Assembly (NCBI GenBank): GCA_038328565.1
Contig: JBBQMC010000001.1
Span: forward strand, 4,237 to 68,236
Direction: 5' to 3'
From: Candidatus Limnocylindria bacterium
Lineage (GTDB): Bacteria; Chloroflexota; Limnocylindria; QHBO01
Length of the DNA: 64,000 nt
Below are positions 28,273 to 56,069 of the stretch, piece after piece. The notes under the pieces were generated by a model. That model made no database searches. It saw nothing but the letters and a program-made list of their open reading frames with translations, and was not told the origin of the DNA. Every line of letters starts with the position of its first letter. The stretch's first letter is position 1. The position numbers and the translations under genes were made by a program.

Positions 28273-28290
28273 GTTCGCGATCAGCCTCGG

Positions 28291-33399: not shown

Positions 33400-33732
33400 A
33401 TGTCCCGCGAGGAGTCCGGCGCCGCCCTCCAGCGCGCGCTGCTGGCGTGCATCGGTCCCGGCGCCGCCGCAGAGATGGCCCAGGCCCAGGCGCGCCTGGC
33501 ATGGGACGAGGTGGTCGAGGAGGCCGGGCTGGCACGGGGCGGGATGCGGAGCCGCGTCACGAAGGTGGCGAACGGGATCGCCCAGGTCGAGGCATCGGAG
33601 CCGATCCTTGCCGCAGAGCTCCGGATGCGCGGCGAGGCCCTCGCGTGGGCCGTGAATCGCCGCATGGCGGGCCGCCCGGGGGCGACCATCGAGTTGCGCG
33701 GGGTGGCCGTTTCGGTGGGTCGCTGGGAGTGA
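33400..33732 (+). CDS. DUF721 (DciA-like) protein
   Basis: 110-aa ORF directly after recF, the conserved position of DUF721 in Actinobacteria. Its length and the central block VANGIAQVEASEPILAAELRMRGEAL fit the family. Confidence 0.7.
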   Translation: MSREESGAALQRALLACIGPGAAAEMAQAQARLAWDEVVEEAGLARGGMRSRVTKVANGIAQVEASEPILAAELRMRGEALAWAVNRRMAGRPGATIELRGVAVSVGRWE

Positions 33733-33791: not shown

Positions 33792-36014
33792 ATGTCCTCG
33801 CGCCTTGCCACTCGCATCGGTCTGCCCGCAGCCGAGGAACGCGCTGCCGGGGCGCTCGACGTCGCGCGCTTCCACGAGCCGACGGTCGGGGCTCGGGCGC
33901 GGACGAAGGGATCGCTCTTCCTGCTGGCCCAGGTGACCGGCAGCGATCCGTCGCTCGGCCGGGCCGCGCGCGAGGCCCTCGACGAGATCGAGCGGGACTA
34001 TTACTACGACCTGTCGGTCGGCGCCCTCGGCGCGCTCGCGAAGGCGATCGAGGCGGCGAACCGGCGGCTCTACCACCATCGCCGCAAGCTCGGGATCGGG
34101 AAGCGCGGCGGGGTCGGCGTGGTGGCGGTCGCGGTGCGCGGGCGTGAGCTCCACGTCGCGAAGCTCGGCCCGGCGAGCGCGGTCGTCGTCCGCGGCGGCC
34201 GGATGTACGAGCTGCCGCCACCCCCGGCCGTGGCCGACGAGGATCCGCGCGTCCGGCGGCGCCGGGTTGCCGGCACCCTCGGCGAGGCGCTCCAGGTCGA
34301 GCCGTACACGTGGCAGGGCGAGCTCGCCGCCGGCGACCGGATCGCGCTGGTGAGCCGCAACCTCGCCCACGTGGTGGGCGTCGATGAGCTCAAGCGCTCG
34401 CTCGACGTGATGCGCCCCGCCGCTGCCGCCGAGCACCTTCAGCAGCTGTTCGCGATCCGCGGCGGCAGCGGCTCGGACGGGTTGCTCGTCATCGAGATCG
34501 ACGAGGTGGCGGCGACGGCGACGACCCGCCAGCTCGAGCCGGTGCGGCCGGCGGAGCCGCTCGCCGGGCTTCCGGACGAGAGCCCGGTCCCGCTCGCCGA
34601 CGCGATCGGGCGCCTGCTCCACCGTGCGGGCGCGGGGATCGACGCGCTCCAGGCGGCCTCGGGGCGCGGCCTGCTGCGGCTCATCAATGTCATCCTCGCC
34701 TTCGTCCCGCACCGGCGGCCCGGCTACCCGCGCACCGTGTCGCGGACCGATGAACGCGAATCGGGGCGCCGCCGCCGGCTGGGGCTGGCCTGGATGGTCG
34801 TGGTTGCCGGTATCGCCGCCGCCGGGGTGATGGTCGGATCACTGCCGTCGGCGACGCCCACCGACGCGATCCCGCGCGCCCAGGTGGCCCGCCGGGCGAT
34901 CACCGACGCCCAGCAGCTCGTGGCCCAGGTCGAGGACGAGGTCGAGGGTCGCGACCTCGTCGCGCGTGCCCCGGAACAGGCGAAGACGCTCCTCGACGAG
35001 GCGTTCGGGGCGGTGGAGCGCGCCGCTGGCGCCGGCGTCGCGACCACCGAGCTGGAACCGCTCCGCGCACGCGTGGATCGCGGCCTCGACGCGCTCTACC
35101 ACGTCGCCCGGATCCAGGACATTGCCATCGTGGCCGACCTCGCCAGCACGCTCGAGGCGGTTCACGCCACGCGGATGGTCGCCTCCTCCGATGGCGCGCT
35201 CTGGCTCGCCGACGAGGGCCGCGGTCGCGTGATCCGCGTCGACCCCGCGGACGGATCGGCGACCGTCGTCTATCGCGCGGGCCAGGAGCTTGCCGGCGGC
35301 GTCGCCGCCGCTCCCTGGCTCATCGCCACGGCCGCCACGGACGTGGTGGTCGTCGACCGCTCACGGCAGGTGTGGCGAATCGACCTCACCGAGCTGCTGC
35401 CGCACCGCATGCCGCTCAAGGGGATCGAGGCCATCTCGGCCGACAGCCAGCTCCTGGCGGCACTCCAGCATCGGCCGCCGCTCGAGATCTTCAACCTCTA
35501 TCTCGTCGACGCGGCGAATGGCGTCATCGACAAGTGGTCCCCGCCGGCTGTCATCCCGGTGACGTTCCCCAGCGCCCCGCAGCCCTTCCTCAGCGCCGAG
35601 CCCGACATCCCGCCCCAGCGGGCGCGCGACCTGCTCGTCGACGCGAACCTGTGGCTGCTCCAGCGCAATACGGTGACGCGGGTGAACTTCGGCACGCCGC
35701 TGCCGCAGACCGACTTCTCGCTCGACCCGCCGCCGGACGCCCAGGTCCGCGACGCGGTCGACTATCGCCTCTTCGACGCAGCGACAATCGGTGAGCGGGA
35801 GCTGTTCTTCGTCTACGACGCGGCGAACGCGCGGATCGTCGGTTTCCAGCGCGCGGATGGGGCGTTCGTCGGGCAGTGGATGGCGCCGCGGGCCGGCGCG
35901 CAGAAGGACCTGCTCGCCGACGTCGTCGGCCTGCATGTGGCGTCGGTGGCCGACGGCCCGCCGGTCGCCTACCTCGCCACCCTGGACCGGGTGGTGCGCG
36001 TCGTGCTCGAGTAG
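33792..36014 (+). CDS. Membrane protein: degenerate PP2C (PstP-like) cytoplasmic domain, one TM, extracytoplasmic repeat (beta-propeller-like) domain
   Basis: 740 aa. The N-terminal ~250 aa align by eye with PPM phosphatases, but metal-binding Asp positions are replaced (ADGMGG to AQVTGS, GDS to GPA, CSDG to VSRN). TM is LGLAWMVVVAGIAAAGVMVGSL. The C-terminal part has repeated blades such as LWLADEGRGRVIRVDP, VVVVDRSRQVWRIDL and LFFVYDAANARIVGF. Confidence 0.7.
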   Translation: MSSRLATRIGLPAAEERAAGALDVARFHEPTVGARARTKGSLFLLAQVTGSDPSLGRAAREALDEIERDYYYDLSVGALGALAKAIEAANRRLYHHRRKLGIGKRGGVGVVAVAVRGRELHVAKLGPASAVVVRGGRMYELPPPPAVADEDPRVRRRRVAGTLGEALQVEPYTWQGELAAGDRIALVSRNLAHVVGVDELKRSLDVMRPAAAAEHLQQLFAIRGGSGSDGLLVIEIDEVAATATTRQLEPVRPAEPLAGLPDESPVPLADAIGRLLHRAGAGIDALQAASGRGLLRLINVILAFVPHRRPGYPRTVSRTDERESGRRRRLGLAWMVVVAGIAAAGVMVGSLPSATPTDAIPRAQVARRAITDAQQLVAQVEDEVEGRDLVARAPEQAKTLLDEAFGAVERAAGAGVATTELEPLRARVDRGLDALYHVARIQDIAIVADLASTLEAVHATRMVASSDGALWLADEGRGRVIRVDPADGSATVVYRAGQELAGGVAAAPWLIATAATDVVVVDRSRQVWRIDLTELLPHRMPLKGIEAISADSQLLAALQHRPPLEIFNLYLVDAANGVIDKWSPPAVIPVTFPSAPQPFLSAEPDIPPQRARDLLVDANLWLLQRNTVTRVNFGTPLPQTDFSLDPPPDAQVRDAVDYRLFDAATIGERELFFVYDAANARIVGFQRADGAFVGQWMAPRAGAQKDLLADVVGLHVASVADGPPVAYLATLDRVVRVVLE

Positions 36015-36033
36015 CCGGCGCTATCATCGGGCC

Positions 36034-36585
36034 ATGGGCGAACTGCCGTACGGACGCGTGCGCCTCATCGAGATGGTCGTGGAGAGCGTCCGCGTCCACA
36101 TGCTCTCGAGCCAGCACGTCGTCATCCTGAAGGACAACGAGCGGGACCGATACCTGCCCATCTGGATCGGTCCGGCCGAGGCCAACGCGATCGCGATGCG
36201 CCTCCAGGGGCTGTCCGCCGAGCGCCCGCTGACCCACGACCTGCTCGTGAGCGTGGTCGCCACCCTGCACTCGACGATCAGCCGTATCGTCGTCACCCAC
36301 GTCAACGAGGGGACGTTCCACGCCCGCCTCTACCTCGAGAACGCGGATGGCGAGGAGGCGGAGGTGGACTCGCGAACGAGCGACGCGATCGCAGTCGCGG
36401 TCCGCACCGGCTCACCGATCTACGTTGACGAGCGGGTCCTCGACGAGGCCGGCGTCGAGCCGGACCATCTCGAGGAGGGCGAGACCGGTCCCGAGGACGA
36501 GAAGCTGGCGGTGTTCCGCGAGTTCATCAACTCGCTCGACGTCGACACGGACGCCGGCGACACCGGGCCACCGGACGAGCAGTAG
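36034..36585 (+). CDS. Bifunctional nuclease family (DUF151/BFN) protein with acidic tail
   Basis: ATG 36034 gives MGELPYGRVRLIEMVVESVRVHMLSSQHVVILKDNERDRYLPIWIGPAEANAIAMRLQG...RPLTHDLL, the BFN-domain pattern. Confidence 0.85.
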   Translation: MGELPYGRVRLIEMVVESVRVHMLSSQHVVILKDNERDRYLPIWIGPAEANAIAMRLQGLSAERPLTHDLLVSVVATLHSTISRIVVTHVNEGTFHARLYLENADGEEAEVDSRTSDAIAVAVRTGSPIYVDERVLDEAGVEPDHLEEGETGPEDEKLAVFREFINSLDVDTDAGDTGPPDEQ

Positions 36586-36625
36586 TTCCTGGCTGCGGCG
36601 CGCGTTCCGTCGGGGGTTCGGTCGC

Positions 36626-37405
36626 CTAGGTGCGGGAGCGCCTCGGCCCAAGCACCTCGCGGCGATGCAGCCAGAGGGCGATCCGCAGCTTCCCGATATC
36701 GCGGAACGTGCGGAGGATCTTCCGGAACGAGGCGCCCGTGTTCGTGCCCGCCGTCCGTGGGTAGTGGTTGACGCCGACCTGTGCGATCCGCTCGCCGCGC
36801 GCGCGGAGCTTGATCAGGAGCTCGGCCGACAGGAACGGGGAGTCGGCGTCGAGGCGCAGGCCGTCGAAGACCTCCCGTCGGAACAGCTTCATGGCGCAGT
36901 CGATGTCGCGCGCCCGCAGGCCGAAGAGGACGGACACGATGGCGTTGTACGTCTTGGCGATGAAGATCCGGTGCGCCGGATCGCGGCGCCTGATCCGGTA
37001 GCCGATCACCACGTCGACCGGCTTCTGGCGTGGGTCGTCGAGGCGGGAGATGAGACGCCCCATCTCGGTGAGGTCGAACTGGAGGTCGCCGTCGGAGAAC
37101 GAGATGAGGCGTCCGCGCGAGTTCGCGAAGCCCGTCCGCAGCGCGCCGCCGTAGCCGCGGTTCTCCTGATGGACGACGCGGACCTCGGGATGCGCAGCGG
37201 CGAGCGCGTCCGCGAGCTCGGAGGTGCGATCGGTCGAGCCGTCGTCGACGATGACGATCTCCATCGAGTCGACGAGCGGACCGATGTCGGCGAGCGCTCG
37301 TTCGACGGTGCGCTCCACGTTCTCCTCCTCGTTGAAGGCGGGGAAGAAGAAGCTGAGCTGGGGCGGATCGGTCTCGTGGGGCTCGCGCGTTGGCTCCGGG
37401 TTCAG
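36626..37405 (-). CDS. GT2 glycosyltransferase, polyprenol-phosphate sugar (Ppm1/DPM1-like) synthase; probable CTG start
   Basis: The track ORF starts at GTG 37318, which would delete the conserved first strand. The open frame upstream reads LNPEPTREPHETDPPQLSFFFPAFNEEENVERTV. Also has IVIVDDGSTDRT, ENRGYGGALRTGF and DGDLQFD. No ATG/GTG/TTG exists upstream. CTG 37405-37403 overlaps the upstream stop (CTGA) and has GAGGTG 5 nt upstream. Confidence 0.85.
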   Translation of the reverse strand: MNPEPTREPHETDPPQLSFFFPAFNEEENVERTVERALADIGPLVDSMEIVIVDDGSTDRTSELADALAAAHPEVRVVHQENRGYGGALRTGFANSRGRLISFSDGDLQFDLTEMGRLISRLDDPRQKPVDVVIGYRIRRRDPAHRIFIAKTYNAIVSVLFGLRARDIDCAMKLFRREVFDGLRLDADSPFLSAELLIKLRARGERIAQVGVNHYPRTAGTNTGASFRKILRTFRDIGKLRIALWLHRREVLGPRRSRT

Positions 37406-39021
37406 GGCAGCACCTCGACGATGTCCGTGTAGCCGCCGTACGTCTCGACCGGCCGCGTCCGGAAGACCGCCAGCAGGCGTGCCGCCTCCCAGTCCGGCGG
37501 CACGAGGTAGACGGGGCGCCGGCCGAGGTAGGCGCGAATGGCGGCGTCGATCGTACTCCAGCCATCGTCGAGGATGTTCCGCTCGTCGATGATCATGATG
37601 TCAGGGCGATCGCCGAGCACCCAGCGGTGGTACCACAGCGGCGTGCTGTAGCTCCACCAGCTGATGATCACCGCGTCCGGCGGCAGGGCTCGATACACGC
37701 TCGCGACCCACAGGTCCGCCTCGTGGTTGGCGGACTGGTCGCGCACGTCATAGCGGGTCACGAGCGCAACGACCGGCAGCAGCGCGCCGAGGAGGAGCAC
37801 GGTCGTGCCCGCGATCCGCGCCGCCGCCCGGCGGCCGGCAACGTCGAGCGTCCGCCGCGTCGCCTCTGCGATGGCGCGGCTTCCCGCCGCCGCGAGGCTG
37901 CCGACCGCCACGCCCACGAAGACGCAGGCCACGAGCGTGCTGAGCAGGTAGTAGCGGTCGATGTCCCCGTCCTGGAAGTTCATCGAGTAGAACACGTTCG
38001 AGACCATGAGCAGCACGAGGAATGCGAACGCCCCCAGGCGCTTGACGGCGAGGCTCGCGGCGCCCATCGCCACGACCAGCCAGCCCGGGCCGACGAGCTG
38101 TGCAGCGAGCACGCTCTCCGCCTTCGCCCACTTGAAGTCGATGTACTGGAGCGGGCTGCTCAGCTGGTCGAAGAGACCGTGGAACTGCTCGGCGAAGACG
38201 AGGTAGCGGAACCCCTCCCACGTTGTCGGGCGCGCGTAGAAGAGCGGCGGCTCGGGCCAGATGTGCGCCCGGATCGGGATGTAGAGGTAGACGAGGAGGC
38301 CGAGCAGCAGCAGCCCGGCGCACGCGAGGAGGAGGCGCCAGCGGCGCCAGATGCCGGGGTCGACGATGAACAGCCACGGACCGATGGCGAAGGCCATCAA
38401 CCCGGTCAGTGGATGGTTCCCCATCCCGATCCCGAACATGAGCGCAGCCACGGCCAGCCAGCGGCCGCGATGCCGCGACCCGGCCCATTCCGCGGCGCGC
38501 CACGTGACGAGCAGCCACACGATGAGCGCGGCGATGAAGATGTGGATGGCGTGGACGTCGGCGCGCAGGGCGTTCTCCCACACCTCGCCCGCGAACGCGA
38601 AGGCGGCACCCGCCACCGCCGCGGCGACGGCGGTGACCCAGCGGTTGCGCTCCTCGAGCAGGTGGGCGGTGATGAGGACCGTCAGGCCGGCCGCGAGCGC
38701 CACGCAGACCGCCGACAGCAGGTTCATGCGGTATGCGACCTCCCCGATCGGGAGCTGGCTCCACAGCCACCCCAGGAGGGCGTAGGTCGGGAAGCCGGTC
38801 GGATGGAAGATCGACAGGGTGTGCGGCACCGTCTGCGCCTCGCCGGTGTCCCAGAAGCCCGCCGCCGGCATGAGCGTGCGCAGGTAGATGGCGAAGGCGA
38901 CGAGGGTGATGAAGGCAGCCGCCCACGCCACGGGGCCGGAGACGTACGGCAGCCCGAGCCCGTGGTGTCGCGGCGCAACCGGGGGCGCCGCGGGCACGTC
39001 CGAGGCCCGATGTATACTCAC
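37402..39021 (-). CDS. DUF2723 (TMEM260-like) GT-C fold membrane glycosyltransferase
   Basis: The real gene is the C-terminal ~540 aa of the 793-aa track ORF. Has AGFWDTGEAQTVPHTLSIFHPTGFPTYALLGW (the FWDxGE and HPxGxP motifs of DUF2723), about 11 TM segments, then a soluble C-terminal domain. The start is GTG 39021 or GTG 38997. Confidence 0.8.
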   Translation of the reverse strand: MSIHRASDVPAAPPVAPRHHGLGLPYVSGPVAWAAAFITLVAFAIYLRTLMPAAGFWDTGEAQTVPHTLSIFHPTGFPTYALLGWLWSQLPIGEVAYRMNLLSAVCVALAAGLTVLITAHLLEERNRWVTAVAAAVAGAAFAFAGEVWENALRADVHAIHIFIAALIVWLLVTWRAAEWAGSRHRGRWLAVAALMFGIGMGNHPLTGLMAFAIGPWLFIVDPGIWRRWRLLLACAGLLLLGLLVYLYIPIRAHIWPEPPLFYARPTTWEGFRYLVFAEQFHGLFDQLSSPLQYIDFKWAKAESVLAAQLVGPGWLVVAMGAASLAVKRLGAFAFLVLLMVSNVFYSMNFQDGDIDRYYLLSTLVACVFVGVAVGSLAAAGSRAIAEATRRTLDVAGRRAAARIAGTTVLLLGALLPVVALVTRYDVRDQSANHEADLWVASVYRALPPDAVIISWWSYSTPLWYHRWVLGDRPDIMIIDERNILDDGWSTIDAAIRAYLGRRPVYLVPPDWEAARLLAVFRTRPVETYGGYTDIVEVLP

Positions 39022-39072
39022 CGCCGCCGTGCCGTGCCAGACTCGGCGTCGCCGTACCCGGCGACGCCTTCG

Positions 39073-42000
39073 ATGACCTCCCGTCCCATGCGGCGGCCGG
39101 ACGCGAGGCCATTCGCAGACGGCCTGCCTCTCGACCCCGGCGCGCTCCTCGGCGTCCTGATCCTCATTGGTCTGCTGCTGCGGGCCCTCATCGCTGGCAT
39201 CCTGCTGCCGACAAGCGGCTTCCGGATCGACATCGTCGACTTCGCGGCATGGGGGCAGCGACTCGCAAGTGTCGGGCCCGGCGCATTCTACGATCCGAGC
39301 GTCTTCAGCGATTATCCGCCCGGCTACCTCTACGTCCTCTGGGTCCTCGGGATCGTCGGCAAGCTGCTGTCCCCGCTGGTCGGGCAGGACGCCACCGCCG
39401 GGCTCGTGAAGATCCCCGGCATCCTCGCCGACGCGGGGGTCGCCTGGCTCCTCTTCAGCTATGGCAGGCGCTTTCTCCATCGCCGCTTCACGCTCGCCGG
39501 CAGGAGCTGGTCGGGCGGGGCGGTGGGACTGCTGGCCGCCGCCATCTACCTGTTCAACCCCGCGACGATCTTCAACAGCGCCATCTGGGGCCAGGTCGAC
39601 TCGGTGGGCACGCTCATCATCCTCGGCACCCTGTACGCGCTCGCGGCGGGCTGGACCGAAGCCGCCGCGCTCGGGGCCATCGTCGCCCTGCTCGTGAAGT
39701 TCCAGTACGCCTTCCTCATCCCGATCGTCGCTGTGGTCGGGATCCGCCGCCACCTCCTCGGCCGCTCCGCCGACCCGGCACACGATGACCAGCGTGACCC
39801 GCTGCGGGTGCTGACCTCACTCGCGGTGGGCGTCGGCGCGCTCGTGCTCCTGCTCGCCCCGTTCGGGATGACGGTGTGGTCGCCGAATCCGGATCCGAAC
39901 GTCAGCCTGATCGGCAAGTTCGGCCAGGCGGCGACGACGTACGAGGGGCTCGCGATCAACGCCATCAACCTGTGGCGCAACGCATGGAGCGGGCTCGGCG
40001 ACACGCTCCAGTGGGGCTGCGACGTGCCGGCCGTGCCGCCCGACCTGGGCTGCGGGGGACCCGGCATCGCGATCGCGGCTGGCGGCTTGGCCGTCTCATG
40101 GCAGCTGCTCGGAACGCTGCTCTTCGCCGCGGCCGCCCTGGTCGCCATCTGGCAGGTCTGGCGCCATGACGAGCCGGAGGGCATCCTCCTCGGCTCGTTG
40201 CTCGTGGCGGTCGCGTTCTTCGTGCTGCCGACCCGCGTCCACGAGCGCTACCTCTTCCCGGCCATCGCGCTCGGCGCGCTCCTCGTCCTGCGGGCGGCGC
40301 CGCGGCTGGCGCTGACCGGCACGCTCCTGGCGGTCGGGGCGGCGGTGGCCGTCGCCATCGGCCTCGACGTCGTGCCAGGCTTCCGCCTCGTCGGCGACGG
40401 CACCTGGCCCGCCTGGTTCCTCCTCATCTTCCCGCTGGCGGCCGCCGCCGTCGCCCTGCTGCTCGTCCGCTACGGGTGGGCCGCCCTGTTCGGCCTGCTC
40501 ACGCTCTCGCTGACCGCGAACGCGCTGTGGGTCTACACCGCCGACTGGTCGTTCGCCGGCGATCCGCCCATGAATCCGGGCTTCGGCGGCGGCGCCATGG
40601 ACCTCGGCCCGTTCTTCGACGACGTGATCTGGACCGATGCCGCCCTCTACCTGCTCGGGATCTCCATCGTCGTCGCATTCGGCTGGCTCGCGGTCCGGGT
40701 AGCGCGGGCCGCCCTGGCCCCGGCAGCCACGCGGGCGATCGAGCTCAGCGCGCCCGTCGCCGCAATGCCATCTCCTGCTGCCATGCCGCCCCTCCCGGAG
40801 GTCGCCATCACGAACGCCCGCGAGGAGGACCCGCTCTACCGAGAGCCGCGCCGTCGCCTCGATCGGCTCGACGCGCTCCTCCTCGTCGGGCTCGTCGTCT
40901 TCGGCCTCCTCTTCCGCCTCTGGCGCCTCGACGTCCCGCAGGCCTACCACTTCGACGAGGTCTACCACGCCCGCTCCGCGATGGAGTGGCTGTCCGACTG
41001 GGAGCACGGCTGGACCCGGGACACCTACGAATGGACACACCCGATGCTCGCGAAATACCTCATCGCGGCCGGGATCGTGGCCATGGACCCGAACAACGTG
41101 CGCGACACGACGGACGTCGCCAGCCCGGGACCGGCGATCGCGGTCGCTCCCGCCAGGAGCTTCGAGCAGCACCCGCGCTCGGTGACGTTCACCGTGGAGG
41201 GTGGCCAGATCGTGGCCCGCGATGCGCTCGACGGAACCGAGCTCAGCCGATGGTCCGCGGGAGGCGCGATCGCGTCGCTCGCGTGGGACATGACGGTCCA
41301 GCGCCTCCTCGCCGGCCGCGCCGAGGGCGGCATGGTCCAGGCGTACGACCTTGCCGGCTACCTCACAGAGAGCGGGCCGCGCGCTCCGCCGCCGGCAGGG
41401 GCGACCTGGGCGACCACGCTGGGCAGCGTCGACCAGCTCGTCGTGTCCGATGACGGGGCCACGATCCTCAGTCGCGGGCCGGATCGCATCGCGCGGCTCG
41501 ATCCGGCGGGGACGACGATCAGCGCCAGCGTCGAGTTGACGACCGGGGGCCTCGCCTATCTCCCGAAGGTCGAGACCACCGCGGCGTACGTGCTCGCGAC
41601 CGACGTGCGCGCCGGCGCGGTGAACGTCCTCGACCCCGCCACCCTTCAGCCCGCGGCAAGCAGGGAACCGCTCCAGCCGAACTCGACGCCGGTCGGACCG
41701 ATCCTGGTCCAGGGTTCCGGCGCCGACATGCAGATCTGGGTCCCGGTAGGGCCACAGCCCGGTGACCCGGGCGCCTTCCCGGCCACCGGCGGCGGGATCG
41801 CGGTGTTCGGCCATTCGTTCAGCCTCATTGGGACGACCCCGCTCCCCGGCGCGCCGCGCCAGATCGCCTGGGAGCCGGTGGTCAACATGGTCTACGTCAC
41901 CGGCGTCACCGATGACGGCGCGTCGCCGGTCCTGTGGGCCGTGGAGCCGCACGGCGAGTCCGGCAACGCCGGCCAGCTGCGCTCGGGCTTCTCGGTCTGG

Positions 42001-43905
42001 GACAGCACCGCCCTTCCCGGGGAGCCGCTGGCGATCGCGGTCGACGCGGTCGACACCGGCACGACCGATGACGACGCCCAGATCGTCGTCGTCACCGCGC
42101 CCGCCGCTGGCGGCACGACCGGAGCGCTCGTTGGCGTCGACACCCGCGAGGACGCGATCGCGTGGCGCATGGCCGGCGTCGTCTTCGGCGCCATCCTCGT
42201 CGGGCTCATCTACCTCCTGGGGGCCACGATGTTCCGCCGCCGGCGCATCGCGGTCCTCGCCGCGATCTTCGTTGCGGTCGACGGCATGAGCTACGTCATG
42301 AGCCGGATCGCGATGAACGACATCTTCACCGCGACCTTCATCGTCGCCGCGTACCTCCTGTTCTGGCAGGTGTGGTCGGGCCGATGGAGGGGCAGCGCAT
42401 GGTGGGCGCTGCCGCTCAGCGGCGTCCTGATCGGTCTCGCCGCGGCGAGCAAGTGGGTCGGCTTCTACGCGCTCGCCGGACTGCTCATCCTCGTCCTGGT
42501 GCGGTCGCCACTCGGGCGGCTGCTGCTCGTCGGCGCGATCGGCTTCCTGCTGGTCGTGACCGGCATCGACGCGCCGTGGCCGTTCCTCGTCGTGTGCGCC
42601 GCAGTCTTCGCGATCGCGATGGTCATCGTCTGGCGCTGGCCGATCCGGCTGCGCGGCGAGGAGCTGCTGGCACTGCCGGCGACCGGCCTCGCGCTGGGAG
42701 GCATCGGTCTGGCCTTCGCGATCGCCTACGGGCAGGTGGCCGGCAGGCAGCCGAAGGACGCGGTCGAGACGGTGTTCGCATTCCTGGCGCGCGGGGCGCA
42801 GGCGTCATGGCCGGCCTGGATCATGCTCGCCGTCGCGGCCATCCTCATCCTTGCGCGCGCCGCCTGGTCGCTCCGCGCCCGGAACGACGTCCGCTGGTGG
42901 GCCCCGGAAGAGCTTGGCGGCTTCTCGTGGCCGTGGGTCGGCGCGTGCCTCGTCATCGTGCCGCTCGCCGTCTACTTCCTCGCCTACGTGCCGTACCTGG
43001 CGCTCGGCCACACGATCGCGATCCCGAACGTCGGGCCCGGCTACGCGTGGTCGCTCGACGAGCTCCATGCCCAGATGTTCGGCTACCACTTCGGGCTCAC
43101 CGCCGGACATCCGTCGAGCTCGCCATGGTGGAGCTGGGCGCTCGACCTCAAACCCACCTGGTTCTACGGCCACAGCTACGACGACCGCACCACGGCGGCG
43201 ATCTACAACGGCGGCAACCCGATCCTCTTCTGGGCCGGCATCCCGGCCCTCGTCTTCGCCGGAATCATGGCCTGGCGCCGTCGCTCGCTGGCGCTGGTGC
43301 TCGTCGTCGTCGCGTTCGCCTTCCAGTTCCTGCCCTGGACCCGGATCGAGCGCGCGACGTTCATGTACCACTACTTCACCGCGGTCCTGTTCGCGATGGT
43401 GGCGCTCGCCTACGCCGTCGACGAGCTCCTCGTCCGCCCCGACTGGCGGCCGTATGGCATCGCCTTCCTCAGCCTGGCGGCGGTGGCCGGCATCCTCGTC
43501 TTCCCGCTGGGATCGGCGCTCGCAATGCCGGACTGGTACATCAATGCGGCCCGGGCGCTACCGCCGTGGAACTACGCCTTCCAGTTCCCCGGACCGCCAT
43601 CCGGCTCGCGCGCGCAGCTCGTCAGCAGCAACCTGCCGAAGCTCCTGGCGGGCCTGGCGGTCGGATTCGTGGCCGCCGTGTTCGCCCTGCTCGGACGGGA
43701 CACCTGGGAGAGCGAGCGCGTCCGGCGCGCCTCAGCGGCGGCGGGAGAAGGAGGCGACGACGATGACGAGGCCGGCGACCAGCAGCCCGACGGGCCAGAC
43801 GCGCGACCACGGGATCGCGGGGAGGTACTGGGCGGCGAGCGCCCAGGCCCCGACGACGATGAGGATGCCGCCGACGATCAAGGCGCCGCTCCCCGGTTCG
43901 AGTGA
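39073..43905 (+). CDS. Giant fusion glycosyltransferase: N-terminal GT-C module + PMT/GT39-type module carrying a ~355-aa inserted soluble domain
   Basis: Part of the 2171-aa track ORF; its first ~560 codons are antisense to the DUF2723 gene and are rejected. Module 1 has RIDIVDFAAW, DYPPGYLYVLW and VHERYLFP. Module 2 has FDEVYHARSAMEW, WTHPMLAKYLIA, SRIAMNDIF and ATFMYHYFTAVLF. Possible starts are ATG 39010, 39073 or 39088. Confidence 0.8.
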   Translation: MTSRPMRRPDARPFADGLPLDPGALLGVLILIGLLLRALIAGILLPTSGFRIDIVDFAAWGQRLASVGPGAFYDPSVFSDYPPGYLYVLWVLGIVGKLLSPLVGQDATAGLVKIPGILADAGVAWLLFSYGRRFLHRRFTLAGRSWSGGAVGLLAAAIYLFNPATIFNSAIWGQVDSVGTLIILGTLYALAAGWTEAAALGAIVALLVKFQYAFLIPIVAVVGIRRHLLGRSADPAHDDQRDPLRVLTSLAVGVGALVLLLAPFGMTVWSPNPDPNVSLIGKFGQAATTYEGLAINAINLWRNAWSGLGDTLQWGCDVPAVPPDLGCGGPGIAIAAGGLAVSWQLLGTLLFAAAALVAIWQVWRHDEPEGILLGSLLVAVAFFVLPTRVHERYLFPAIALGALLVLRAAPRLALTGTLLAVGAAVAVAIGLDVVPGFRLVGDGTWPAWFLLIFPLAAAAVALLLVRYGWAALFGLLTLSLTANALWVYTADWSFAGDPPMNPGFGGGAMDLGPFFDDVIWTDAALYLLGISIVVAFGWLAVRVARAALAPAATRAIELSAPVAAMPSPAAMPPLPEVAITNAREEDPLYREPRRRLDRLDALLLVGLVVFGLLFRLWRLDVPQAYHFDEVYHARSAMEWLSDWEHGWTRDTYEWTHPMLAKYLIAAGIVAMDPNNVRDTTDVASPGPAIAVAPARSFEQHPRSVTFTVEGGQIVARDALDGTELSRWSAGGAIASLAWDMTVQRLLAGRAEGGMVQAYDLAGYLTESGPRAPPPAGATWATTLGSVDQLVVSDDGATILSRGPDRIARLDPAGTTISASVELTTGGLAYLPKVETTAAYVLATDVRAGAVNVLDPATLQPAASREPLQPNSTPVGPILVQGSGADMQIWVPVGPQPGDPGAFPATGGGIAVFGHSFSLIGTTPLPGAPRQIAWEPVVNMVYVTGVTDDGASPVLWAVEPHGESGNAGQLRSGFSVWDSTALPGEPLAIAVDAVDTGTTDDDAQIVVVTAPAAGGTTGALVGVDTREDAIAWRMAGVVFGAILVGLIYLLGATMFRRRRIAVLAAIFVAVDGMSYVMSRIAMNDIFTATFIVAAYLLFWQVWSGRWRGSAWWALPLSGVLIGLAAASKWVGFYALAGLLILVLVRSPLGRLLLVGAIGFLLVVTGIDAPWPFLVVCAAVFAIAMVIVWRWPIRLRGEELLALPATGLALGGIGLAFAIAYGQVAGRQPKDAVETVFAFLARGAQASWPAWIMLAVAAILILARAAWSLRARNDVRWWAPEELGGFSWPWVGACLVIVPLAVYFLAYVPYLALGHTIAIPNVGPGYAWSLDELHAQMFGYHFGLTAGHPSSSPWWSWALDLKPTWFYGHSYDDRTTAAIYNGGNPILFWAGIPALVFAGIMAWRRRSLALVLVVVAFAFQFLPWTRIERATFMYHYFTAVLFAMVALAYAVDELLVRPDWRPYGIAFLSLAAVAGILVFPLGSALAMPDWYINAARALPPWNYAFQFPGPPSGSRAQLVSSNLPKLLAGLAVGFVAAVFALLGRDTWESERVRRASAAAGEGGDDDDEAGDQQPDGPDARPRDRGEVLGGERPGPDDDEDAADDQGAAPRFE

Positions 43906-44169
43906 CAGATTGACCGGCTTGCGGACCGCGGGTCGCAGCGGATCGGCCGATGGCGCATCGGCGGCCGGGGCGGCCGCATCGGTCCCTTCCTCGGGGATGA
44001 CGAACAGGAGCAACAGGTAGACGAGGATCGCGGCACCGTTCGTGGCGATCGCGAGGATCACCCATGCGATCCGGACCCAGGTCGGGTCGACCCCCAGCTG
44101 CTGACCGATGCCTCCCGCCACCCCGCCGATCATCCGTTCATGCCGCGAGCGCAGCAGCCGTCCGTTCAT
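43732..44169 (-). CDS. PspC domain-containing membrane protein
   Basis: ATG 44169 gives MNGRLLRSRHERMIGGVAGGIGQQLGVDPTWVRIAWVILAI...LVYLLLLFVIPEE (PspC domain), followed by two further TM segments. Confidence 0.8.
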   Translation of the reverse strand: MNGRLLRSRHERMIGGVAGGIGQQLGVDPTWVRIAWVILAIATNGAAILVYLLLLFVIPEEGTDAAAPAADAPSADPLRPAVRKPVNLSLEPGSGALIVGGILIVVGAWALAAQYLPAIPWSRVWPVGLLVAGLVIVVASFSRRR

Positions 44170-44450
44170 GCCGCCGATTCTCGCAGGTCGCCGCCCTTTT
44201 CTTGACACGCGCCGCGGGCGAGACGTAGACTGCCGCTCCGTCACTCGACCGAGGCCGCGCCTGCGTGCGCCCTCACCGTCCCTGGCGGACCGGCGATCTC
44301 ACCCATCTATGGAGAGCGGCAACTGGCCATGAATCTTCCGAACTGCGCATTCCCGCGCACCAAGGCGCCTACCAACGGCGTCGCGGACGGGAGATCTGCG
44401 CCCACCTCGAGCTGAGAACCGGCGGCAACGCCGCCAACGACAGCCACGAG

Positions 44451-44480
44451 CCGTGGGCCGGATCCGGACCACGGTTTTTT
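44451..44480 (+). terminator. Intrinsic-terminator-like hairpin plus T6 in the 5' leader of the ABC operon
   Basis: CCGTGGGCCGGA/TCCGGACCACGG hairpin (44451-44474) followed by TTTTTT (44475-44480). This is the only T6 run I noticed outside coding sequence. It lies 137 nt upstream of ATG 44618. Confidence 0.6.
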
Positions 44481-44617
44481 GATGCCCCAGTGGCGTCGCC
44501 GGAGCCGTGGTCCCTCCCGGGATCACGGCTCGTTCTGCGTCCGGGACGGACGAGCCACGAGGCCACCAGCAACCGATGACTGACCCGGCGGACGACGACG
44601 ACGATAAGGAGCACCGG

Positions 44618-45535
44618 ATGACCGGCGTGCTTGAACAGATGAATAGCGCACCGCAGCAGCGGCCCGCCTCGATGGCGGCCACCCAGCGGCGCCCGCGGCT
44701 TCAGCCGATCGTCGAGGGCGGGGTGCCGGCCCTTCTCGCGGACCACGTCACGAAGCGATTCGTGGTGGGCCGGAAGAAGAAGCCCGTCATCGCGGTCAAC
44801 GACGTGAGCCTGCGCATCCCGCGCGGCGAGATCTACGGGATCCTCGGCGCCAACGGGAGCGGGAAGTCGACGCTCATCCGGCTCGTCAGCACCCTGCTAA
44901 CGCTCGACGCCGGGCGGGTGGAGGTCTTCGGCCACGACATCGAGCGCGACGAGATGGCCGTCAAGCGCGTCATCAACCGGGTGAGCGTGGACGCGGCCTT
45001 CTTCAAGAAGCTGTCGCCCCACGAGAACCTGACCTACGCGGCCCGTCTCTACGGGATGGACGCCGGTCAGGCGAAGCGCGACGCGATCGAGATCCTGGCG
45101 CGCCTCGGCATCGGCGAGAAGCGGCTCAACCGGCCGCTCGAGCAGATGAGCCGTGGAATGCAGCAGAAGGTCGCCATCGCGCGGGCGCTGCTGACGAGCC
45201 CAACGCTCCTCCTGCTGGACGAGCCGACCACAGGCCTCGACCCGCGCTCGAAGCTGGACGTCCAGTCGTTCATCGAGGAGCTGCGGGACACGCATGACGC
45301 GACGATCGTGCTCACGACGCACGACCTCGACGAGGCGGAGCGGCTCTGCGATCGGCTCGCGATCATCAACGACGGCCGGCTCGTGGTGGAGGACACCGCG
45401 GACGGCCTCAAGGCCATGGTGGCCGAGCGGTTTGGCCTGCCGGCGACCCTGGAGAGCGTCTTCATGAAGTACACCGGCAAGTCGCTCGACGACGACATCG
45501 GTGACGACGACAAGGACGACGACAGCGACGAATGA
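44618..45535 (+). CDS. ABC transporter ATP-binding protein (DrrA/ABC-2 exporter type) with poly-Asp tail
   Basis: ATG 44618 is preceded by AAGGAG. Has GANGSGKSTL, MSRGMQQKVAIARAL and LLLLDEPTTGLD. The tail is DDDIGDDDKDDDSDE. Confidence 0.9.
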   Translation: MTGVLEQMNSAPQQRPASMAATQRRPRLQPIVEGGVPALLADHVTKRFVVGRKKKPVIAVNDVSLRIPRGEIYGILGANGSGKSTLIRLVSTLLTLDAGRVEVFGHDIERDEMAVKRVINRVSVDAAFFKKLSPHENLTYAARLYGMDAGQAKRDAIEILARLGIGEKRLNRPLEQMSRGMQQKVAIARALLTSPTLLLLDEPTTGLDPRSKLDVQSFIEELRDTHDATIVLTTHDLDEAERLCDRLAIINDGRLVVEDTADGLKAMVAERFGLPATLESVFMKYTGKSLDDDIGDDDKDDDSDE

Positions 45536-45759
45536 GACAGAAAGGAGGTGAGAACACCGTGCTGAACAGCCTGCCGATGCCGCAGGACCTCGTGAGCGTC
45601 AATGACGCGCACGTGGCGCAGCTGCGCCACGAGATCCGGGCCCGACGCAACCATCGGCCCGAACGCCGCCCCGTGCGGCGCTGGGTCGGTCGCCTGCTGG
45701 TCCGAATGGGCCAGCGCCTGGCGGCGGAGCCCGGTTTCCGGCCGGCCCGGTCCCTCTAG
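45532..45759 (+). CDS. Hypothetical Arg-rich micro-protein encoded between the ABC ATPase and permease genes
   Basis: Either ATG 45532 (ATGA overlap with the ATPase stop, 75 aa) or GTG 45559 (66 aa), which is preceded by AAAGGAGGTGA. GC3 is very high throughout. No TM segment and no recognisable domain. Confidence 0.45.
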   Translation: MRQKGGENTVLNSLPMPQDLVSVNDAHVAQLRHEIRARRNHRPERRPVRRWVGRLLVRMGQRLAAEPGFRPARSL

Positions 45760-45808
45760 TCGAGGGACTCGGGTCGGCACATCCGCCTCCCGACAGGAGT
45801 CCACTGAC

Positions 45809-46609
45809 ATGTCCCTGATGACCCGCGAGCTGAAGGCGTCGTACGCCTTCGTCGAGCGGAACTTCAATCTCACCCGGCGCTACTGGGCCTGGGAGGTCGC
45901 GTTCCTCGTCTACGCCGTGGCCGGCGCGCTCGCCGTGTCGCTCATCGGCAAGGACCAGGGCGATGACCGCCTGCTCCTGACGCTCGTCATCGGTGCCGTC
46001 TTCTGGAACTACCTGTCGGTCGTCTTCAGCTTCATCGCCGAAACGGTCGCCTGGGAACGCTGGGAAGGGACCCTGGAGTACACCTTCATGGCCCCCGTGC
46101 GCCGCTACGCGCAGATGGTCGGCTCGACGCTCTACGCGATTGCGTACGGGTTCGTCCACACCGTGGTCGTGCTCGCGGTGCTCGCCCTGTTCTTCGAGCT
46201 CGACCTCGCGCATGCGAATTTCGTGACCGCGGCGGTGTTCATGGTGCTCGGGTCCCTCTCGTTCATCGGGATCGGGATCATGACCGCCATCCTGCCGCTC
46301 ATGTACGTGGAGCGCGGGGCACAGATGACGTTCGTCCTGCAGTCGGTGCTGCTGCTCATCAGCGGCGTCTACTACAGCGTCGACATCCTCCCCGGATGGA
46401 TGCAGGTGCTGAGCCACTTCAGCCCTGCGACCTACGTCCTCGACGGCGTGCGCGCCGGCCTCATCGACGGGACGCCGATCACGGCGCTCGTCGGCGACGT
46501 CTGGCCGCTCGTGGTGATGGGCGCGGTCTTCATCCCACTGGGGATCTGGGCCTTCGGTCGCGCCGAGCGCTACGCGAAGCGGACCGGCAAGCTGAAGCGC
46601 GTCGGATGA
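45809..46609 (+). CDS. ABC-2 type transporter permease
   Basis: ATG 45809 gives MSLMTRELKASYAFVERNFNLTRRYWAWEVAFLVY. 266 aa and 6 TM, the typical ABC-2 (DrrB-like) pattern. Confidence 0.85.
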   Translation: MSLMTRELKASYAFVERNFNLTRRYWAWEVAFLVYAVAGALAVSLIGKDQGDDRLLLTLVIGAVFWNYLSVVFSFIAETVAWERWEGTLEYTFMAPVRRYAQMVGSTLYAIAYGFVHTVVVLAVLALFFELDLAHANFVTAAVFMVLGSLSFIGIGIMTAILPLMYVERGAQMTFVLQSVLLLISGVYYSVDILPGWMQVLSHFSPATYVLDGVRAGLIDGTPITALVGDVWPLVVMGAVFIPLGIWAFGRAERYAKRTGKLKRVG

Positions 46610-46724: not shown

Positions 46725-47753
46725 ATGACCACCTCTACCACGAGCCGCCTCGACCCGCCGGTCGTGCCCGGCCTCACCCTCCGCGTCCACGACGGGACGA
46801 CCGGAGTCGCCGCGCAGATGGCGCCGATCGCGCTGGCCGCGAATCGCGCCGATGGCGTGCAGTCCCACGTCGACGAGAGCGAGCTTGCGAACTGGCTCGA
46901 CTATGCAGGCGACCACTTCGACCCGGCGCGCGACATCGTGCTGGCCGAGCTCGACGGCACGCTCGTCGGCTATGCGTGGGTCGAGTGGGTCGACACGACC
47001 GAGGGCATGCGCGAGTTCCGGCTCGGCGGGTACGTGCACCCTGACCAGACCGGCCGCGGCATCGGCCGCAACCTGCTCGCCTGGCAGGAGGCGCATGCCG
47101 CCACGCTCCCCGCTGCCCTGGACGCCACCACGACCCTGGGCTACGGCAGCTGGTCGCCGGAGGAGCGCGCCGCGAAGCGGCACCTCTTCGAGCGCGCCGG
47201 CTACGAGGTGGCGCGCTACTTCTTCGAGATGCGGCGTAGGAATCTCGACGCCGTCGACGTGCCGCCCATGCCCGCGGGGCTCGAGATCCGGCCCATCGGT
47301 CATGATCGGACCAGCCAGAAGCAACTGTGGGACGCCGATGTGGAGGCGTTCCGCGGCGACCACTGGGGCGGCTTCGACGACTCCGACGCGAACTTCGATC
47401 GTTCGATGGCCGATCCTGACCACGACCCGGACCTGTTCGTCATCGCCTGGGACGGTGACGAGATCGCCGGTGGCGTGACGAACGCGATCTGGAAGGCCGA
47501 CAACGAGGCGTTCAACCGCCGTCGCGGCTGGCTCGAGACGGTCTTCGTCCGTCGTCCCTGGCGTCGCCGTGGCCTCGGCGCGGCGATCGTGGCGCGGTCG
47601 CTCGTCCGCCTCCGCGAGGCGGGCATGGACGAGGCGATGCTCGGCGTCGACAGCGGCAACCCGAACGGCGCGCTCGGCCTCTACGAGCGGGCCGGCTTCG
47701 TCGTCCATACGCGGTCGTACGCCCTGCGCCGCCCGTTCGAGGTGATGCGATGA
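46725..47753 (+). CDS. Two-domain GNAT N-acetyltransferase, MshD (mycothiol synthase)-like, paralog 1
   Basis: 342 aa. The C-terminal GNAT has VFVRRPWRRRGLGAAIVARSL (acetyl-CoA loop) and NPNGALGLYERAGF. Confidence 0.85.
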   Translation: MTTSTTSRLDPPVVPGLTLRVHDGTTGVAAQMAPIALAANRADGVQSHVDESELANWLDYAGDHFDPARDIVLAELDGTLVGYAWVEWVDTTEGMREFRLGGYVHPDQTGRGIGRNLLAWQEAHAATLPAALDATTTLGYGSWSPEERAAKRHLFERAGYEVARYFFEMRRRNLDAVDVPPMPAGLEIRPIGHDRTSQKQLWDADVEAFRGDHWGGFDDSDANFDRSMADPDHDPDLFVIAWDGDEIAGGVTNAIWKADNEAFNRRRGWLETVFVRRPWRRRGLGAAIVARSLVRLREAGMDEAMLGVDSGNPNGALGLYERAGFVVHTRSYALRRPFEVMR

Positions 47754-50747: not shown

Positions 50748-50930
50748 GCGGCGCGGCCCCACGTGCGCTTACACGTCCCGTATCTATCGGACGGTCAGAG
50801 GGCATTCCTTACCGTCCCTGCAGCCTCCGGACGCGGAGCGGCCGTTACGTTGGCCGTTCGTTGCGCGGACTGCAACAATCGGTCACTCATTGGCCGTTAC
50901 GAACACGGGTGGTAAGAGCCGCGGCCACCG

Positions 50931-54815: not shown

Positions 54816-54819
54816 CCCG

Positions 54820-56049: not shown

Positions 56050-56069
56050 GCTGTACTCCGTTCTGCTGG

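Follow-up and report, generated by a model that had tools for sequence, protein, structure and literature searches.

A candidate polyprenyl-phosphate-sugar synthase gene and a double GT-C fusion gene near the replication origin of Candidatus Limnocylindria may form the outer-face half of a phosphatidylinositol-anchored glycolipid pathway

Introduction

What does a bacterium build with a donor-making glycosyltransferase whose gene lies beside genes for several membrane-embedded glycosyltransferases, and on which acceptor? The question is raised by a locus in the window analyzed here, a stretch of 64,000 nucleotides (nt) from a Candidatus Limnocylindria bacterium of the phylum Chloroflexota (GenBank assembly GCA_038328565.1, contig JBBQMC010000001.1, positions 4,237 to 68,236). 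Three genes make up the locus: one encoding a family 2 glycosyltransferase (GT2), one encoding a TMEM260-like GT-C protein of CAZy family GT117 (formerly DUF2723), and one encoding a 1610-amino acid (aa) fusion of two further GT-C modules. An earlier note, made from the sequence alone, had described them as a self-contained glycosylation island dedicated to mannosylation outside the cytoplasm, possibly of proteins. Our analysis suggests that the locus, which lies near oriC, builds a phosphatidylinositol (PI)-anchored glycolipid resembling PI mannosides (PIMs) and lipomannan, with the three genes supplying the outer-face half of the pathway, a reading to which we give about an even chance.

The combination of a GT2 enzyme with a GT-C enzyme that uses a lipid-phosphate sugar outside the membrane is an established scheme (PMC8035078, PMC11127046). 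Its actinobacterial parallel is Ppm1 together with PimE, MptA and MptB (PMC12041525, PMC3229680), PimE acting on AcPIM4 with polyprenyl-phosphate-mannose (PMC12041525). Nothing relevant came up in literature searches for Limnocylindria glycosyltransferases, for this locus and for PIM or lipomannan in Chloroflexi.

Results

Conservation of the locus

The three open reading frames are present with the positions and strands that the earlier note gave them (Table 1), and profile searches agree with its assignment to the GT2, DUF2723/TMEM260 and PMT families (PF00535, PF11028 and PMT) and with its parts list of one donor-making enzyme plus three lipid-linked-sugar transferase modules. Searches with the fusion protein returned more than 1190 homologs. 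All 120 listed are about 1500-1650 aa long, and the named ones among those listed belong to Chloroflexota or 'Ca. Limnocylindria', except for one metagenome-assembled genome (MAG) labelled Binatia. When representatives were searched exhaustively, 3912 homologs passed E <= 1e-3 and 446 passed E <= 1e-30. Scanning species-representative genomes provided 80 loci, and the counts of pairing given below refer to the 57 species-level loci with enough upstream DNA.

Using tblastn with the window proteins, we found a conserved gene order of dnaA-dnaN-recF-small gene-740-aa gene-BFN-GT2(-)-[GT117(-)]-fusion(+)-PspC(-)-ABC, the bifunctional-nuclease-domain (BFN) gene lying between the 740-aa gene and the GT2 gene. 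The GT2 gene is divergent to the fusion gene in 55 of the 57 loci, the remaining two being cut by contig ends. The GT117 gene lies between them in 35 loci, and in the other 22 the gap between the GT2 and fusion genes measures 22-405 bp. On a neighbor-joining tree of the C-terminal module (C-module) of the fusion, GT117 is missing from the deepest clades; a single large clade has it, apart from at least six absences scattered through that clade.

A distant lineage of double GT-C proteins, 1771-1827 aa long and 37-40% identical to the window C-module, extends this picture. One of its members (L083) has the same origin synteny, with DnaA 74%, the fusion about 39% and a GT2 ortholog in the same position 50% identical to their window counterparts, and its GT117 slot is taken by a 469-aa GT87-like GT-C protein. 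Comparison of this protein with the window GT117 revealed no similarity, and its candidacy as a GT117 relative was rejected: the slot is filled by unrelated GT-C families. In another member (L081), a GT117 ortholog (39% identity) and a GT87-like protein both precede the fusion. We conclude from gene content that the core of the locus is the GT2 gene plus the fusion gene, with a variable accessory GT-C in the slot between them, and GT117 appears to be an accessory, dispensable member because it is present in only 35 of the 57 loci. The view of the three genes as a unit has to be given up, since GT117 is so often missing and a GT87-like protein replaces or joins it in the distant lineage.

The description of the locus as a self-contained island fares no better, given a uniform GC content (0.67-0.75, in a window of about 70% G+C) and the conserved dnaA-dnaN-recF-...-ABC block, and uniform GC together with class-wide synteny rules out a mobile or horizontally acquired island. 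Judged by its genes, the window covers oriC and its surroundings in a 'Ca. Limnocylindria' genome, and what it contains here is a vertically inherited, origin-proximal core locus of the whole class.

Full Limnocylindria origin synteny was also seen in four loci whose MAGs are labelled Zixiibacteriota, Steroidobacteraceae or Binatia (L027, L049, L055, L068); these are probably mis-binned contigs or mislabelled bins. The nearest relative of the window in the genome collection (L072, CAWGUL010000003.1) is about 90% identical to it, and its tblastn matches are fragmented for most genes, which suggests frameshift errors in the assembly.

The fusion protein

Three Pfam families match the fusion over their cut-offs: PIG-U-like at residues 83-257, PMT at 1028-1144 and PMT_4TMC at 1330-1477. 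The protein was modelled in two pieces from 69-sequence alignments. The AlphaFold model of the N-terminal module (N-module; m3ef45f00f194, pLDDT 87, pTM 0.89) was matched by Foldseek, among PDB structures, to ALG6 (1e-6), PimE (1e-4), PIG-U (2e-4), glycosylphosphatidylinositol (GPI) mannosyltransferase I (7e-4) and ALG3 (8e-4), with target-normalised TM-scores of 0.52-0.62 and sequence identities of just 10-15%. In Pfam the N-module matched PIG-U with 33 bits and the window fusion had no match to PF09594 (GT87), a family for which precomputed matches exist in a few fusion orthologs (P0093, P0095, P0096). A profile of the whole fusion run against the PDB reached Pmt1, Pmt2 and Pmt4 only, with nothing for the N-module, PimE included. 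The predicted structure thus gives the N-module an ALG6/PimE/PIG-U/PIG-M-like fold, and its earlier description as a PMT-type module is not borne out. The helix of the first outer loop begins with the motif RIDxxDF, in which Asp53 is invariant and D56 almost so; the invariant aspartate is consistent with an active N-module, unlike the non-catalytic PIG-U. The catalytic members among the fold relatives of the N-module act on lipid-linked glycans.

The linker that follows the N-module is poorly conserved across the 69-sequence alignment and predicted to be disordered. Behind it lies the C-module, whose model (mc7b1871a86d9) has a pLDDT of 82.7 and for which Foldseek returned Pmt4 (9i5k) at 2.5e-7. 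The C-module matches PF02366 (PMT) with E 1.9e-13 (51 bits against a cut-off of 22.7) and PF16192 (PMT_4TMC) with E 2.4e-17 (63.5 bits against 32.4), and the NCBIfam model of bacterial Pmt (NF058602) with 40 bits against a cut-off of 800, covering the C-terminal transmembrane (TM) region alone. The PMT-type motif F627-D628-E629 is invariant in the 69 sequences; the invariant columns of the corresponding alignment (A2) are F58, D59, E60, Y62, H63 and T86-H87-P88.

Inserted in the first outer loop of the C-module is a beta-propeller of seven blades (27 strands in the model, pLDDT mostly above 90), which Foldseek matched to WD40, YVTN and BamB propellers at E of about 1e-7. It is flanked by TM1, with RRR before it, and by TM2, with FRRRR after it, and from these basic stretches the propeller is predicted to be extracytoplasmic and to lie next to the catalytic loop. 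The outer MIR or TPR domains of other O-mannosyltransferases are a functional parallel to this position. As to a form without the fusion, P0243 was considered as a stand-alone PMT-plus-propeller protein and rejected as truncated by a contig end, and P0244 (967 aa, from L088) is a genuine unfused form.

The fusion gene converges with the PspC-domain gene, and their 3' ends share about 170 nt (43732-43905), an arrangement kept in most loci; the acidic tail of the fusion is the antisense reading of the hydrophobic C-terminal helices of the PspC protein.

The GT2 protein

Pfam places residues 18-181 of the GT2 protein in PF00535 (E 1.8e-29). Its top full-length sequence matches in the PDB are ArnC structures (7e-18, residues 16-237), followed, after two soluble GT2 matches confined to residues 15-113, by the Pyrococcus dolichyl-phosphate-mannose (DPM) synthase (6e-11) and the GtrB-type sll0501 (7e-10), all three of which put a sugar on polyprenyl phosphate. 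In NCBIfam the protein comes closest to ArnC, dolichyl-P-hexose transferase, PgfS, AglJ and PpgS, but it falls far short of every equivalog cut-off (best 71 bits against a cut-off of 529). The translation contains the acidic DxD-type motifs VDDGSTD and SDGDLQFD. A hydropathy scan revealed no TM helix, as is also the case for human DPM1 and the catalytic domain of mycobacterial Ppm1, and the C-terminus, FRKILRTFRDIGKLRIALWL, looks amphipathic. On these matches and motifs we regard the GT2 protein as a candidate polyprenyl-phosphate-sugar synthase of the Ppm1/DPM1/ArnC/GtrB type, the sugar being probably mannose.

The start of the gene is unusual. In the region 37318-37405 (minus strand) the window has no ATG, GTG or TTG upstream of the conserved LSFFFPAFNEEEN motif, and the sole candidate start is a CTG at 37405, which shares bases with the TGA that ends the GT117 gene (cTGa). 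In more than 50 homologous loci a canonical ATG, GTG or TTG precedes the motif by 8-17 codons; the CTG is common only to the window and its closest relative (L001), and L072 lacks both a canonical start and the CTG. The gene may use a non-canonical start or be translated by termination-reinitiation, or its start codon may have been lost recently. The proposed co-transcription of the GT2 and GT117 genes is plausible.

The phosphatidylinositol mannoside operon

Seven kilobases downstream of the fusion gene, on the minus strand (50931-56741), lies an operon encoding a PimA-type family 4 glycosyltransferase (GT4), a PHP-domain phosphoesterase, two PatA-like acyltransferases, an inositol-phosphate synthase (Ino1) and a phosphatidylinositol-phosphate (PIP) synthase, an order that recalls the mycobacterial pgsA1-patA-pimA operon. 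The GT4 matches M. smegmatis PimA (4n9w, 2gej) over its full length at E 2e-58, with the next best matches at about 1e-20. The acyltransferases score 168 and 129 bits against a cut-off of 209 in NF005919, 'phosphatidylinositol mannoside acyltransferase', and PatA is their sole match in the PDB (1e-18). The PIP synthase matches M. tuberculosis PgsA1 (6h53) at E 1e-26. Because the PimA, PHP, PatA, Ino1 and PIP-synthase genes are present together, the host organisms, going by sequence, almost certainly make acylated PI mannosides. The PHP protein is a candidate PIP phosphatase, a role proposed by inference only.

The operon follows the fusion gene by 4.3-9.9 kb in 37 of the 43 Limnocylindria loci with enough downstream sequence. 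In the members of the 1771-1827-aa lineage that were examined (L081, L083, L086), the PspC, ABC and GNAT genes that intervene in the window are absent, and the fusion gene is convergent with and adjacent to a GT4-PHP-acyltransferase(s) series in which the PHP gene holds the same operon position; the longest of these contexts (L081) continues with a second acyltransferase, an inositol-phosphate synthase and a CDP-alcohol phosphatidyltransferase. A distant fusion homolog of 2012 aa adjoins an inositol monophosphatase-family gene. The PHP protein encoded beside the unfused homolog of L088 showed family-level likeness only (E 1e-6 over 82 aa) and was rejected as support.

The GT117 protein

Orthologs of the 539-aa GT117 protein carry the NCBI name 'glycosyltransferase family 117 protein'. 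The protein matches Pfam PF11028, TMEM260-like, with E 5.6e-31 (108 bits against a cut-off of 24.2), and with phmmer its residues 29-482 align with residues 24-467 of human TMEM260 (9rql) at E 1e-21. According to a cryo-EM preprint, D52 and H67 of TMEM260 form the donor site, D441 is the catalytic base, R264, Y267 and R355 bind phosphate or sugar, and a TPR domain recruits the acceptor (10.64898/2026.03.17.711096). In GT117 the residues aligned with D52 and H67 are D58 and H73, neither of which varies among 41 orthologs. D441 aligns with S457 of the invariant motif SWWSYST in a pairwise HMMER alignment, in which a shifted functional equivalent is possible. R264, Y267 and R355 align, in a low-confidence stretch, with E278, H281 and an alanine, the orthologs conserving YLVFAEQF and DGDIDRYY instead. 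Pfam gave no match to a TPR domain in GT117, which ends at residue 539, the alignment stopping at residue 467 of the 729 of TMEM260.

By these alignments the donor side of GT117 looks conserved and the acceptor side does not, and since the TPR domain is absent and a serine stands at the position of D441, protein O-mannosylation as performed by TMEM260 is not simply transferable to GT117. No characterised bacterial GT117/DUF2723 protein was found in the searchable literature, where the paper of the discoverers of TMEM260 mentions only 'distant homologs in bacteria'; nothing there contradicts the earlier statement that the family is uncharacterised in bacteria.

The divergent intergenic region

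From the GTG of GT117 (39021) to the ATG of the fusion (39073) the distance is 51 nt. The interval is not empty: it holds a -10-like box, TATACT, and a 15-codon upstream open reading frame (uORF) encoding the Arg-rich peptide MPCQTRRRRTRRRLR, whose stop in the window overlaps the fusion ATG (ATGA). An element TATACTCACCGCC(A/G)CC(T/G)TG lies 5' of the fusion in all 61 loci compared, and in 61 of 61 the TATACT is followed after 9-10 nt by a TTG or GTG. Among the six deepest-branching loci, this codon is a near-leaderless start of the fusion in at least five (L018, L020, L059, L070, L074); the codon of L077 begins a frame of 380 codons whose N-terminus is the same and which our script had labelled a uORF. 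Elsewhere it mostly opens an Arg-rich ORF of 8-16 codons whose stop overlaps or closely precedes the fusion ATG. TATACT is also present in the distant L081 and L083, followed there by an AGGAGG-type leader. The box was found by comparing loci only; a scan for consensus promoters and terminators over 36300-44500 gave nothing in the divergent region, and an Rfam scan of 35500-45000 returned zero families.

Read on the opposite strand, the element also provides GT117 with its apparent GTG start, so that residues 1-5 of this protein are probably conserved at the DNA level.

Surrounding genes

The other genes that flank the locus are listed with its features in Table 1. The small gene after recF is without a Pfam match; its positional counterpart in L083 is annotated PF05258 (DciA), the DnaC/DnaI-independent helicase operator. 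The 740-aa protein contains one TM helix and resembles, weakly in both cases, PP2C at its N-terminus and BamB or a beta-propeller at its C-terminus; in every locus its gene comes after recF and the DciA-like gene (4954-7185 in L083), a slot that gyrB occupies in many bacteria. The ABC-2-type transporter sits between the GT-C locus and the PI operon class-wide, is the sole transporter nearby and is, speculatively, a candidate for flipping or exporting the glycolipid or its donor. At least two of the GNAT genes encode double GNAT domains, and their best NCBIfam match, mycothiol synthase MshD, falls well short of its cut-off (37-66 bits against 163).

Table 1. Features of the locus and of the surrounding window, in window coordinates
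Feature	Position	Strand	Evidence or remark
GT2 glycosyltransferase, 259 aa	36626-37405	-	PF00535
TMEM260-like GT-C (CAZy GT117, formerly DUF2723), 539 aa	37402-39021	-	PF11028
-10-like box TATACT	39013-39018	+	conserved
15-codon Arg-rich uORF	GTG 39029 to TGA 39074-39076	+	10 nt after TATACT
Fusion gene, 1610 aa, two GT-C modules	39073-43905	+	PIG-U-like, PMT and PMT_4TMC matches
Fusion: N-terminal GT-C module, residues 1-548	39073-40716	+	AlphaFold and Foldseek
Fusion: Pro/Ala-rich linker, residues 549-595	40717-40857	+	pLDDT <50 in both models
Fusion: C-module TM1 and first outer loop	40858-41094	+	F-D-E motif (D628, E629) and HPxLAKY helix
Fusion: seven-bladed beta-propeller, residues 675-1023	41095-42141	+	predicted insert in first outer loop of PMT-like module
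Fusion: C-module transmembrane core, GT39/PMT-like	42142-43707	+	PMT and PMT_4TMC
Fusion: acidic, poorly conserved C-terminal tail	43708-43905	+	antisense to 3' end of PspC gene
PimA-type GT4 (GDP-mannose:phosphatidylinositol alpha-mannosyltransferase)	50931-52301	-	phmmer
PHP-domain metallophosphoesterase	52121-53149	-	Pfam PHP_C and PHP; NCBIfam CehA/McbA metallohydrolase domain
PatA-like acyltransferases, two	52909-53916, 53799-54815	-	NF005919
myo-Inositol-3-phosphate synthase (Ino1)	54820-56049	-	TIGR03450, 558 bits, E 1e-167; PF01658
Phosphatidylinositol-phosphate synthase (PgsA1 type)	56070-56741	-	NF045883, 140 bits
yidC and jag	26024-28290	-	origin-region genes
dnaA	29101-30684		order dnaA-dnaN-recF
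dnaN	31062-32192		
recF	32227-33396		
Small DciA-like gene	33400-33732	+	3' of recF
Membrane protein, ~740 aa	33792-36014	+	no Pfam family
PspC-domain gene	43732-44244	-	convergent with fusion gene
ABC-2-type transporter, ATPase and permease	44507-46609	+	
Four consecutive GNAT genes	46725-50976	+	between ABC-2 transporter and inositol-lipid operon
Sortase gene	60290-61003	-	
Trehalose-phosphatase gene	61022-61825	+	adjoins sortase, downstream in envelope-related neighborhood

Discussion

On the families, folds, motifs and linkages described above we infer a sugar, an acceptor, an order of steps and a role for the propeller, as follows. At the cytoplasmic face the soluble GT2 enzyme would load a sugar onto polyprenyl phosphate, in all likelihood mannose supplied by GDP-mannose, and some flippase would carry the polyprenyl-phosphate-sugar donor across the membrane. 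Outside, the two GT-C modules of the fusion would use this donor to extend the acylated PI mannoside made by the PI operon, with the beta-propeller docked in the catalytic loop of the C-module and probably holding the acceptor. An optional third GT-C, which is GT117 in the window, a GT87-like protein in the sister lineage and absent in many species, would add a dispensable decoration.

The PI-mannoside operon, which the earlier note had missed, shifts the likeliest acceptor from proteins to PI-anchored glycolipids. Further support comes from the N-module, for which several of the best structural matches (PimE, PIG-U and GPI mannosyltransferase I) are proteins that handle PI-based glycolipids. 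Several points weigh against the glycolipid proposal. The C-module is GT39 by sequence, and every characterised GT39 enzyme known to us glycosylates proteins. The closest solved relatives of the GT2 protein are ArnC enzymes, not mannose enzymes, and its sugar specificity cannot be read from its sequence. The operon contains no second GT4 that could be PimB', and PimB' in the PDB matches the operon GT4 at 1e-19 only, against 2e-58 for PimA; no GtrA-like flippase was matched by Pfam among the genes scanned (19-62 kb of the window). One distant fusion (L085) has no inositol genes nearby, and the 7-kb spacing conserved in the class is weak evidence alone because the whole oriC region is collinear, which leaves the argument for a glycolipid resting mainly on the direct adjacency seen in one sister lineage. 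We know of no cultured representative of the Limnocylindria.

The strongest rival is the one first proposed for this DNA, a dedicated protein O-mannosylation machine, which we consider unlikely, though still a live contender. In it the C-module would start an O-linked mannose on serine or threonine residues of exported proteins held by the propeller, the N-module would add the next mannose, and GT117 would serve a second class of clients, as TMEM260 does for IPT domains. The matches of the C-module over the PMT and PMT_4TMC cut-offs, its invariant DE motif, its Pmt4 fold match and the restriction of PDB sequence and profile matches to Pmt1, Pmt2 and Pmt4 all speak for such a machine, as do the similarity of GT117 to human TMEM260 (1e-21, with donor-site residues kept) and the large binding domain in an outer loop, which parallels the MIR and TPR domains of known O-mannosyltransferases. 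It fits poorly, however, with the score of 40 bits against 800 for bacterial Pmt (NF058602), with a GT117 that is without a TPR domain, has an invariant serine for D441 and leaves R264 and Y267 unmatched, and with an N-module whose fold group has catalytic members that act on lipid-linked glycans, not proteins. It also leaves the repeated linkage to inositol-lipid genes unexplained, and no obvious Ser/Thr-rich client is encoded next door. In Actinobacteria one Ppm1 pool feeds both glycolipid and protein mannosylation, and the two models may coexist here.

Less probable again is a Gtr-, Arn- or CsbB-YfhO-type system that decorates some other polymer of the envelope (a secondary cell-wall polysaccharide, for example, or a glycan of the S-layer or linked to peptidoglycan) with a sugar other than mannose, with the closeness of the PI operon reflecting conserved gene order. 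The collinearity of the entire region in the class would agree with this, and so would the ArnC enzymes as best solved relatives of the GT2 protein and, among its NCBIfam neighbors, PgfS, AglJ and PpgS, which carry different sugars; three-component systems, moreover, decorate many polymers (PMC8035078, PMC11127046). A pure drift of synteny is nevertheless argued against by the PI operon abutting the fusion where the PspC, ABC and GNAT genes are absent, and no Wzx/Wzy or initiating phosphoglycosyltransferase was found among the genes scanned. All characterised GT39 and GT117 enzymes known to us use lipid-phosphate-mannose. So do PimE (PMC12041525) and GPI mannosyltransferase I, ALG6 being the exception with dolichyl-phosphate-glucose.

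Chance adjacency of three functionally unrelated genes, finally, has only the general collinearity of the region in its favor and is effectively refuted by gene-neighborhood comparison, given a GT2-fusion pair that recurs in 55 of 57 loci and in a lineage with 37-40% fusion identity, GT117 and GT2 genes that overlap or abut as an operon, and enzymes that each either produce or consume one shared class of lipid-linked donor.

Returning to the PI-anchored glycolipid as the preferred product, a more specific form of the proposal is that this class of Chloroflexota makes a PI-anchored lipomannan by means of a 'two-headed' GT-C enzyme and that bacterial GT117 proteins are optional glycolipid decorators and not protein O-mannosyltransferases, which we put forward tentatively, as possible and somewhat doubtful. 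PI mannosides and lipomannan are seen as hallmarks of the Actinobacteria, and in mycobacteria they are drug and vaccine targets. If the proposal is true, envelopes of the PIM/lipomannan type are not an actinobacterial invention, and TMEM260 would have gained its protein specificity, with the TPR domain and D441, later, on a scaffold that modified glycolipids. A complete-looking counterpart in the Chloroflexota, with outer-face enzymes that are fused, linked to their donor synthase and encoded next to the replication origin across the class, would bear on the evolution of monoderm envelopes. For bacterial GT117 the locus offers a first genomic context, in which the gene sits in a lipid-phosphate-sugar synthase operon, is dispensable and is interchangeable with a GT87-like gene, and from which a testable hypothesis on the ancestral role of the TMEM260 family follows. 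The fusion is, in addition, a compact and well-predicted structural target for the cooperation of two GT-C active sites with a beta-propeller.

Comparison with known systems

One close likeness is to the actinobacterial PIM/lipomannan pathway. The window has counterparts of PgsA1, Ino1, PimA and PatA in one operon, together with a soluble GT2 of the polyprenyl-phosphate-sugar-synthase type and a PimE-like GT-C fold, and the logic would be shared, with cytoplasmic GDP-mannose steps followed by outer-face lipid-phosphate-mannose steps. The differences are that the phylum is Chloroflexota, that the outer-face GT-Cs are fused in 1610 aa, one of them PMT-like with a propeller, and that the operon is without PimB' and has a PHP phosphoesterase and a second PatA paralog. 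Moreover, the GT2 gene is linked here to GT-C genes, whereas ppm1, pimE and pmt are unlinked in model actinobacteria.

With GT39 (yeast Pmt1, Pmt2 and Pmt4, and the bacterial Pmt proteins Rv1002c and SCO3154) the C-module shares the PMT and PMT_4TMC domains, the DE motif of loop 1 and the Pmt4 fold, but it carries a propeller of about 350 aa in loop 1 instead of a MIR domain in loop 5, and it is fused behind another GT-C. Human TMEM260 aligns with GT117 over the full-length GT-C core, the donor residues and part of the Rossmann-like outer domain, whereas GT117 has no TPR domain, has a serine in place of D441 and is encoded by a dispensable gene in a GT2 operon near glycolipid genes. The N-module finds its best structure matches, and its Pfam PIG-U match, in the group of ALG6, PIG-M, ALG3 and PIG-U, from which it differs in its 10-15% identity and, with regard to the non-catalytic PIG-U, in its invariant loop-1 aspartate.

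Three-component systems (GtrA/GtrB/GtrC, ArnC/ArnT, CsbB/GtcA/YfhO, PgfS) likewise place a GT2 next to one or more GT-C users (PMC8035078, PMC11127046, PMC11092751), and the variable GT-C partner seen here (none, GT117 or GT87-like) recalls the variable Gtr-type transferases. In contrast to them, the locus contains no gene for a GtrA-type flippase, its GT2 is without TM helices, and its three GT-C modules, two of them fused, belong to a core chromosomal set and not to a serotype-conversion cassette or prophage. Systems of this kind are already known, and the general scheme of GT2 plus GT-C is not new; what is new is the two-module GT-C fusion with a propeller in loop 1, the variable accessory slot, the linkage to both donor synthase and PI operon, and the phylum.

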